A stretch of DNA of 64,000 nt from assembly GCA_963674705.1 (NCBI GenBank), contig OY771506.1, forward strand, positions 2,880,001 to 2,944,000. Reading direction: 5' to 3'. The position numbers are program-made. Positions 36,001-39,000 of this stretch are shown here, in pieces (position 1 is the first letter of the stretch; every line of letters starts with the position of its first letter). The stretch comes from Phycisphaeraceae bacterium (lineage in GTDB: Bacteria > Planctomycetota > Phycisphaerae > Phycisphaerales > Phycisphaeraceae).

Positions 36001-39000
36001 ACGGTGGCGATCTGGTTCGTGATGGGTGACATGCCACGCATCCTGCATATCGCGGAGATGGAGGCGCTGCAGGCGTTCGCCGCGGCGGGCACGATCGTTT
36101 ACGTGCTTGCGCTGAAGCTTGCTCTGCTTCTGCTGGTGATGGCGATCCTGGATTATGCGTTCCAGCGCTATCAGCACGAGCAGGATCTGAAGATGAGCAA
36201 GCAGGATGTGAAGGAAGAGATGAAGCGGATGGAAGGCGATCCGATGGTCAAGCAGCGACGTACACGTGTTGCACGTCAGCTCGCGATGCAGCGGATCGCT
36301 CAGGCGGTGCCGAAGGCAGACGTCGTGGTGACGAACCCGACGCATTACGCGATCGCGCTGCAATACGATTCGCAGACGATGCGGGCGCCGAAGGTGATCG
36401 CCAAAGGCGCAGACTTCATGGCGATGCGTATCCGCCAGATCGCGATAGCCAACGGCATCCCGCTGGTCGAGCGCAAGCCGCTGGCGCAGGCGTTGTACAA
36501 GCACGTAGAGATCGGCGATGAGGTGCCGCCGGAACATTACACGGCGGTGGCGGAGATTCTTGCTTACGTTTACAGGTTGAGTGGGAGGAAGTCGGCGTAG
36601 CGACAAGCCATTAGCCATTAGCCGTTAGCCATTAGCTAGAAAGACGTATGGGACAGACTTCACGAGATTATGCGAAGCTTCAGGTGTGGCAGAAAGCCCA
36701 CGTGCTGACGCTGCGCATCTACGAAGCAACTCGACGTTTTCCTGCTGATGAACGGTTTGGTTTGACCAGTCAGATGCGGCGATCGGCGGCCTCTGTGCCG
36801 GCGAACATTGCTGAAGGCTGTGGGCGTGGCGGTGAAAGTGAACTGGCCCGGTATCTGCAGATTGCTCAGGGCTCCGGATCGGAGCTGAGTTACCACCTGC
36901 TGCTAGCTCGCGATTTGGGCTTTATGAAAGAGGAGATCGCAAACGAACTCATTAGGTTGTCGCGTGAGGTTACACGCATGCTCCAGTCCTACCGTTCCAA
37001 GCTAAGGGCTAATGGCTAATGGCTAATGGCTTAAACACCACCCCCGCATGGCTTCTACGGCTGTACAAGTACCGGCCGTTGTTGGTGCCTATTGCTTTTA
37101 TCGGGATGTTGGCGATGGTGGTGGTGCCGATGCCGCCGATGTTGATGGACTTGATGATCTCCATGAACATCGCTCTGGCGGCGATCATTCTGCTGACGAC
37201 GATCTTTGTCGAAAGCCCCTTGGACTTTTCCGTGTTCCCGTCGCTTTTGTTGGGTACGACTCTGTTCCGGCTTGTGTTGAATATCGCAACGACGAAGATG
37301 ATCCTATCGGCCGACCCGACAAGCCCGCAGGCGGCGACGGCGGCGGCGGGGAAGGTGATCCAGGCGTTTGCCGAGTTCGTGACGGGTTCGTCGATTGTGG
37401 TCGGCGTGGTCATGTTCTCGATCCTGATCATCATTCAGTTCGTCGTGATCACCAAAGGTGCGACACGTATTTCGGAAGTGGCGGCGCGTTTCACGTTGGA
37501 CGGGATGCCGGGCAAGCAGATGGCGATCGACGCTGATCTGAACGCCGGGCTCATTGATGAGCAGACGGCCCGCATGCGTCGTGAAGCGATCGCACAGGAA
37601 GCCGATTTTTATGGAGCGATGGACGGTGCTGCGAAGTTCGTTCGCGGCGACGCGATCGCGGGCATCATCATTACGATCGTGAACATCCTCGGCGGGTTTG
37701 CGATCGGTGTGTTTATGAACGGCTGGACGATCGCGGAATCGGTCGATGTGTTTACCAAGCTGACGGTGGGTGATGGTCTTGTGTCGCAGTTACCGGCGTT
37801 TGTGATTTCGGTGGCGGCGGGTTTGATCGTGACGCGATCCAGCAGCCGACAGGACCTGGGGACGGAACTGACGGGGCAGTTGACCAGCCGAAAAGCGGCG
37901 CTGGGGATCACATCAGGATTTCTGATCTTGCTGGGGCTATTGACGCCCTTGCCGACGGCGCCGATGTTGTTGCTGGGTCTAGCGTTAGGTGGATTTGTGT
38001 TTATGACGCACCGGTCGGCGGCGCAGGTGGCGCAGGTCGAAGCGCAGAAGGCTGCCAAGCCTGCGCGTGCGGATGAGTCGCCGGTCGAAGAGGTGATGAA
38101 GGTCGACATGCTCGAGCTTGAAGTGGGGTATGGCTTGGTACGTCTGGTGGATCAATCGCAGGGCGGAGATCTGTTGAACCGGATCACGATGATCCGCAGG
38201 CAGTTGGCGACGGAGATGGGGCTGGTGATGCCGCCGGTGCGTATCCGCGACAACATGCAGCTTCAGCCTAATGATTACCAGATCAAGATCCGCGGTAACG
38301 TGATGGCGCGCGGTCAGGTGCATCCCGGCAAGTACCTGGCGATGGACTCGGGGCTTGCCAGTGAACCGTTGAAGGGCGTTAAGACGGTCGAGCCTGCGTT
38401 CGGGTTGGAAGCGGTGTGGATCAGCCCGGGCCAGAAGGAACGTGCCGAGGCGCTCAACTACACGGTCGTCGGCGCGACGGATGTGTTGGCGACGCATATC
38501 ACCGAGGTTGTGCGTAACCATGCACGCGAACTGTTGACGCGCGAAGAGACAAACAACCTTATCATCCAGTTGAAGGAACGTGCACCGAAGCTGTGCGAAG
38601 AGGTGCTGCAGCCGACGGGCGACAAGCCACCGCTGGTCAAGCCGGGCGAATTACAGCGTGTCTTGCAGAACCTGTTGTCCGAGCGTGTGCCTGTGCGTGA
38701 TCTTGAAGTGATAGTGGAAACGTTAGGCGATTGGGCGACGCGGACAAGAGATTTAGATGTTTTGACAGAATATGTACGAAATTCACTTAGTAGGACGATC
38801 TGTAATCTGTACACTGTGTCAGAACCATCGGGTGATGGCACGAATCCAGGTATGACGTCGAACAAGTTATATTGTGTAAGCCTGGACCCGGCGATAGAGG
38901 ATCAAATCAACGGCTATGTCGAAAGGTCGAACGAGGGGACAAGCATGACAATGCCGCCGGCGGTTGCGAACAAGATAACTGGGGCGATCCTTGAAGAGTT

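Follow-up and report, generated by a model that had tools for sequence, protein, structure and literature searches.

Free-standing homing endonucleases are small nucleases associated with site-faithful allele replacement. In REPIN-RAYT systems, as described in parts of PMC3116915 and PMC3733652, a single-copy, clade-specific gene is flanked by a repeat of which the same genome contains many copies, in inverted extragenic doublets, nests and mosaics. ORF-bearing intervening sequences (IVS) of 23S rRNA genes (Coxiella, Leptospira) carry an S23p/PF05635 ORF in the loop of a terminal stem, with tandem heptamers before the ORF, and an older proposal cited in the portion of PMC4990558 covered here holds that the IVS ORF serves mobility. 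Avd, the DGR protein, forms a pentameric four-helix barrel (part of bioRxiv 10.1101/2023.10.23.563531). Finally, 7-base intergenic repeats have been reported without explanation in Xanthomonas, cyanobacteria and Beggiatoaceae. In Xanthomonas campestris, the covered part of Rehm et al. (PMC4692102) describes 70 inverted GGGAATC pairs located just past stop codons and not associated with mobile elements.

Here, we analyzed a stretch of 64,000 nucleotides (the window) from the genome of a Phycisphaeraceae bacterium (G000; its relatives are numbered G004, G009 and so on, and loci are given L numbers). A PF05635 ORF lies within a terminal heptamer-bearing stem, not in an rRNA gene but at the flhB-flhA junction (Table 1). 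The 2 arms flanking it are 38 nt long and 89% complementary, with the unit AGCCATT/AATGGCT, and within the right arm the TAA of the four-helix gene overlaps the ATG of flhA, the last units being the first flhA codons. The encoded protein is a relative of the 2GSC pentamer (E 1.6e-19), and its match to Avd is weak, with scores under the cut-off. Overall, the system resembles RAYT-REPIN in the way it works and an ORF-bearing IVS in its build, yet it lacks a defining trait of each. We put at roughly 55% the probability that the proteins of each clade act in trans to seed DNA arrays of their own, with homologous recombination spreading the occupied sites; the cassette likely represents a selfish repeat system in its gene-bearing form.

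Table 1. Array-bearing features of the window and the genes next to the flhB-flhA cassette; position 1 is the first nucleotide of the window.
Feature	Position	Strand	Basis and remarks
Gene-less inverted pair, other heptamer class (AGGCTTG)	29244..29333	+	Sequence; 6 nt past stop codon, ends right before next start
Hybrid spacer, AGC-class left arm and CTAACCA-class right arm	30666..30735 (end approximate)	+	Between ORFs ending at 30664 and starting at 30743
flhB, upstream host gene	35530..36600	+	PF01312; stop codon 4 nt 5' of left arm
Left arm, about 5 AGCCATT-type heptamers (AGC class)	36605..36642	+	Sequence
Four-helix-bundle gene, 123 aa	36648..37019	+	PF05635 (E 6.5e-38), TIGR02436
Right arm, inverted heptamer array	36995..37032	+	Sequence
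flhA, downstream host gene	37019..39226	+	PF00771; start as in empty-spacer relatives

G000 encodes 6 four-helix (PF05635) and 3 GxxExxY (PF13366) genes, whereas laboratory E. coli gave no match to either family above the cut-off. As the first-pass annotation had claimed, these genes are framed by inverted arms: an inverted-repeat (IR) score of at least 14 was obtained for 5 of the 6 four-helix and all 3 GxxExxY genes (8/9), compared with 11 of the 886 other small genes in our own gene calls. Its estimates of 10/27 armed loci among relatives and of 16 gene-less inverted pairs proved too low. The same score was reached by 23/27 and 24/29 loci of the family and by 61/76 cross-phylum loci, as against 3/151 distal windows, after 7 of 174 loci too near a contig end had been left out; in a later set, which included L277, L297 and the second-clade relatives, 48 of 58 loci were scored. 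Gene-less copies are also far more numerous, with 121 spacers in G000 combining IR≥14 and a tandem arm. At IR≥15, inverted repeats were found in 93/2443 co-directional and 58/522 convergent spacers (together 151/2965), in 5/613 divergent spacers and in 1/3578 of the shuffled control. Matches to arms deep inside ORFs amounted to 28/812. Most armed four-helix genes (75/89) lie downstream of the stop of a same-strand ORF. Targeting of stop codons beyond selection is unsupported, as an arm lay within 15 nt of the stop in 6 of 19 long spacers.

The arms of the 2 protein families are built from different units. Four-helix cassettes have a period of 7 in 84/95 cases, with a median near 5 units, and GxxExxY arms have a period of 8-10 nt; CRCNRA occurs twice in 36/39 GxxExxY arms versus 0/95 four-helix arms. 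Within the four-helix family, AGC-class arms flank 44 of the 61 genes with at least 52% identity to the window gene, versus 1/33 more distant genes and 0/39 GxxExxY genes. The close relatives with AGC-class arms come from about 10 phyla, across which the AGC core is kept at 50-63% protein identity. Consistently, arm similarity grows with protein identity at different-site pairs (Mantel r 0.47 and 0.37). The initial view that units are arbitrary for each gene is unsupported; in all the phyla compared, the unit follows the clade to which the protein belongs. Furthermore, pN is far under pS in 11/11 pairs, covering both protein families, both of which are under purifying selection.

The coupling between clade and unit extends to whole genomes. 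Among 61 genomes of the family, in which kin are non-independent and many assemblies incomplete, AGC-array matches are most numerous in G057 (377), G053 (278), G000 (200) and G063 (141), with 62 in the next genome. These 4 genomes, from 4 genera, are the only ones with a relative at least 58% identical to the window gene, all others having at most 50%; the chance of such a top-four coincidence is 1 in 495 even within the 12 genomes having 5 or more four-helix genes. Because the genomes with close relatives are the richest in the same repeats, these proteins likely seed short repeats between bacterial genes. For the second family, at least 15 GxxExxY-type array matches were found in 33/36 genomes with a GxxExxY gene versus 6/25 without one, and among genomes with four-helix genes the median was 102 matches with and 5 without a GxxExxY gene. 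The number of GxxExxY-type arrays, however, correlates as closely with the number of four-helix genes (rho 0.63) as with that of GxxExxY genes (rho 0.65).

Finer comparisons gave mixed results. The GGATGGC class has 6 gene-less loci in G004, where the gene is present, versus 1 in G000, and the GAAT class has 19 matches in G000, where the gene is present, versus 10 in G004; a test on these 2 classes chosen post hoc gave Fisher 0.03. Pooling the private classes gave no significant difference between the same 2 genomes (p 0.46), and gains of AGC arrays were more frequent in G004, which is without the gene (12, versus 5 in G000). A prospective replication on a second clade failed, the strict pattern yielding 1, 0 and 0 matches in 3 other clade-bearing genomes and 8 and 6 in 2 genomes without that clade; the arms were of the expected class in 3 of 4 second-clade relatives. 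In G057, the genome richest in AGC arrays, the window gene's close relative (L297, G057:C78) is without clear inverted arms and is followed by a 9-nt AGC-containing array, and the arms of the G063 relative consist of a variant unit. AGC arrays in G000 are mostly unpaired, with a partner in 2/51, and 31/99 are chained with a REP-like motif. The proposed parallel with REPIN-RAYT therefore holds in part. A gene flanked by a genome-abundant repeat is present and unit and protein are coupled both in the cassette and across genomes, but the second-clade replication failed and copying of whole cassettes is unsupported.

Comparison of relatives revealed extensive turnover at the occupied sites. The flhB survey comprised 30 loci, 28 of them extending to flhA. 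The four-helix cassette of G000 is matched by a GxxExxY cassette in G004, as noted in the first-pass annotation, as well as in G009 and G012; the spacer is empty (9-23 nt) in 5 genus-mates, and 4 genomes carry gene-less pairs (by eye). What had been taken in G004 for a leftover of the former right arm is simply the usual beginning of flhA (ATG GCT AAx), and the relatives with empty spacers have it too; it is therefore host sequence, matched by the G000 unit by chance. Two further observations were reproduced: at the pdhA-pdhB site, G009 has another unit on both arms, and upstream of atpA a nested copy is present in the spacer of G000 but absent from that of G009. Apart from flhB, flhA, rsmA and atpA, gene names are presumptive, being based on motifs or carried over from the first-pass annotation. 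G004 is collinear with G000, and of the 14 armed gene-bearing sites of the 2 genomes, 3 have the same cassette and 11 differ, in keeping with the suggested mobility between close genomes. The partner is empty at 1 of the 11 differing sites, whereas at the other 10 a filled site is replaced by another filled allele. In this respect, the cassettes differ from homing endonucleases, which replace empty alleles. Replacement usually begins at the stop codon and reaches the next start, with the possible loss of a few codons; at the single empty/filled gene-bearing pair, codons were replaced without duplication.

The class swaps were probably imported rather than written in place, judging from the divergence of the adjoining sequence. 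In about 1.2 of the 5.8 Mb of G004, covering 588 orthologous spacers of which 488 are of 50-700 nt, replaced spacers made up 45/168 of those with arrays versus 23/320 of those without. Divergence in the last 15 nt of upstream genes was 17% at replaced element sites, 6% at conserved ones and 18.5% at other replaced spacers, and tract divergence was 0.07-0.10 at 5 intragenic class swaps versus 0.03-0.05 at 9 unchanged sites. Among contigs of 4 runs from other samples, one (X6) resembles G004, with 446 nt of other sequence between 36600 and 37019, and another (X3), 96% identical, ends within the left arm; no empty near-identical flhB-flhA allele was found among them. Because of the diverged tracts and the other-sample contigs, in which G004-type and G000-type inserts occur within related backbones, the recent differences between sister species look like alleles brought in through recombination in flanking genes. 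In-place rewriting of the G004 sites was considered and set aside, as the more diverged flanks make import likelier. Import explains the spread among relatives, not the first arrival of a class-specific arm at a new site.

The 2 proteins differ in their catalytic prospects. The predicted GxxExxY model (pLDDT 95.8) has the PD-(D/E)XK fold of restriction endonucleases, with E27 invariant and D66, E76 and K78 conserved in at least 90% of 39 sequences. The fold matches Cas4, lambda exonuclease, Hjc and restriction enzymes (best Z 8.7), with no single family on top, and a search of PDB sequences yielded no match. The model thus suggests that GxxExxY is a nuclease with an intact predicted active site, a trait it would share with homing endonucleases. 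The four-helix protein is without a known catalytic site. A HUH (Y1) tyrosine transposase is not the associated protein, the 2 families being PF05635 and PF13366 and the GxxExxY fold matching PD-(D/E)XK nucleases. RVT_1 was not found in 4 of 5 array-rich relatives, a search that a divergent reverse transcriptase could escape, and a single distant reverse transcriptase is present in G000 and G004. A retro-mechanism was accordingly rejected, and the process is probably not a retro-process.

We envisage a clade-specific protein that would act in trans at breaks or gaps in DNA, where it would seed its own unit as one arm at each end. The four-helix protein, putatively a pentamer, may bind 4-5 heptamers on single-stranded DNA and recruit host repair synthesis, which is invoked because the protein has no known catalytic site; the predicted GxxExxY nuclease may cut at or beside its own 8-10-nt arms. 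Each broken end would receive an arm copied from other arms, giving rise to unique loops, single arms, hybrids and nesting. Insertions would survive just past stop codons, often supplied by the arm ends, or in tolerant loops, and homologous recombination would then swap filled sites between relatives, a reverse transcriptase apparently not being needed. A more far-reaching proposition dispenses with both transposase and reverse transcriptase: 2 small protein families that are unrelated would each dictate a tandem repeat of their own and write it onto DNA ends, with a single arm at each end. Such repeat writers would form a novel class of selfish elements, to which the bacterial heptamer excess would be due and from which ORF-bearing rRNA IVS would descend. 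We regard this proposition as tentative, with the odds against it.

Compared with REPIN-RAYT, there is no HUH transposase, and tandem 7-10-nt arrays take the place of palindromic REPs as arms; elements vary in span, their loops show no relationship, and arms are commonly single or hybrid while keeping their polarity, such that a doublet with its spacer is not the copied unit. Unlike rRNA IVS, the cassettes are located at protein-coding operon junctions and in coding loops, with hundreds of gene-less arrays, a second protein family of the same design and no RNA-type pairing signature. None of the DGR hallmarks of a reverse transcriptase, a template repeat and adenine-specific variation accompanies the cassettes. 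The traits of insertion sequences and MITEs, namely target-site duplication and near-identical copies at several sites, were not found either.

Transposition of whole elements in the manner of REPINs, whereby the proteins excise and insert complete arm-loop-arm units, is unlikely, even though it fares best among the alternatives. It would account for 1 gene with many gene-less copies, for the recurrence of chains of modules and for a nesting order that is never reversed (49 neighbor pairs, 8 outer-to-inner types), as well as for the conserved outer ends of GxxExxY arms and an element of G021 with a GxxExxY remnant (by eye); spacers of REPINs are likewise less conserved than their REPs (PMC3116915, in part). 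Yet, among 96 elements none of the 4560 loop pairs was alike, and a profile search of 81 loops found no remnant of either gene family, also ruling out that gene-less copies are deletion derivatives (0/81). Partner arms are not closer to each other than non-partners in 7 of 8 classes, where mirror copying of one arm from its partner is thereby rejected, and variation is restricted to set positions of each unit, with linkage within or between arms in 0/16 pairs. A 5-mer duplication outside the arms occurs in 7/84 pairs, compared with 0-25% in cross-pair controls; target duplication was thus not found. With unique loops, independent arms and no target duplication, the initial view that stem-forming cassettes are copied whole from site to site is unsupported. 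Single in-frame arms also speak against it: one rsmA loop (16 loci; G000:C1:2354245-2354282 = L357, orthologues L352-L374) is empty in 5 relatives, has in-frame single arms of 4 different units in 8 and an arm pair in 1. Seeding of separate arms in trans therefore remains our preferred reading.

A role at the RNA level, in which the arms, as in rRNA IVS, serve as RNase III or stability stems and as mRNA sites for protein binding and are kept for regulation, the genes being regulators or passengers, is slightly less likely again. The arms start at a median of 6 nt past the stop codon and avoid divergent spacers, and those of the window are predicted to pair at -56.5 kcal/mol. In the parts of the respective sources covered here, RNase III cuts the 28-bp stem of the Coxiella IVS (PMC4990558), Avd binds RNA (bioRxiv 10.1101/2023.10.23.563531) and a repeat-binding regulator has been proposed (PMC4679880). 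Against this, G-U and A-C mismatches in the arms are balanced (126:113, 37:57 and 87:91, versus 32:3 in tRNA stems), without a sense-strand G-U excess, and the arms are therefore not an RNA stem under pairing selection. Moreover, many arrays are single or hybrid and hence unable to pair, sister species differ by an exchange of units at one site, and 7/167 genes are broken by internal stops. A ribosome-bridging stem, which would place the stop next to the start, fits the gene-bearing cassettes (median 1 and 5 nt), but was ruled out by the median of 24 nt to the start in gene-less ones and by the same lack of G-U excess.

The notion that host slippage and template switching make the arrays, with the genes as passengers landing in them and the clade-unit coupling reflecting co-inheritance only, is just as improbable: long perfect expansions and changes in unit number are seen, the rsmA units are 1-2 nt apart and could drift in place, the swaps look imported and 2 tests of action in trans were negative, but the AGC core persists over about 10 phyla, the match of the top 4 genomes to a single clade is exact, and partner arms are not the mirror copies that template switching would give.

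The link to published heptamer repeats drawn in the first-pass annotation is real. As in the cassettes described here, the unexplained repeats in the covered parts of PMC4692102 and PMC4679880 form four-unit arrays in inverted pairs just past stops, and are not tied there to the four-helix family. Xanthomonas array no. 15, consisting of 4 units, is found 6 nt downstream of bccP, in overlap with the start of XCC0516 (PMC4692102, supplement 2), the four-helix protein of 2GSC; the part of the table covered lists no partner arm after XCC0516. The TCAGTTA arms of a cyanobacterial four-helix gene (L277) are the complement of the TAACTGA repeats in the covered part of PMC4679880. Outside subscription journals and preprint supplements, we found no paper linking the four-helix or GxxExxY family to repeat arms, and of 3 papers in which GxxExxY occurs, one mentions it only beside a reverse transcriptase. 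Our results connect the origin of heptamer repeats with what 2 protein families do, namely the GxxExxY nucleases and the pentameric family whose structures have been solved (2GSC, 2RLD). A cognate sequence can be predicted for every clade, which opens binding, cleavage and array formation to direct assay. In addition, gene ends and protein loops are remodeled by the arrays, which change stop codons and create in-frame inserts in rsmA and other genes.

Several individual genes deserve mention. The four-helix ORF of L127 (G004:C1:2603590-2604430, minus strand) stays open across its right arm and continues in the same frame into the following gene, presumably ispF judging from a motif, giving an open frame of 314 aa where the same site in G000 is a 1-nt spacer; similarly long frames occur in many family matches. 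Internal stop codons include a TAG in the GxxExxY gene after groEL (L007, G000:C1:2957915-2958265) and a TGA in the G004 copy of the lepA cassette (L129). The sole armless four-helix gene of G000 (L006, G000:C1:3224184-3224501) is the most divergent one, is kept at the same site in G004 and is possibly domesticated. The L005, L008 and L009 cassettes occupy successive junctions of one operon (G000:C1:2217400-2220800), with an AAA-type gene among them. The only reverse-transcriptase match in G000 (L307, G000:C1:1952900-1953526) corresponds to a 430-aa frame and is also present in G004.

Further AGC arrays in the window are unpaired (at 11227, 17828, 18773 and 30666), some being fused to arms of other classes. 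The reversed control pattern gave 382 matches in G051 and 420 in G076, where the arms of the resident four-helix gene, L068, conform to it. The REP-like motif is found at 29690-29727 of the window (minus strand) and at 93 other sites of G000, 94 copies in all; heptamer modules are often joined to it in chains of fixed order, and 26 copies are followed by an AGC array.
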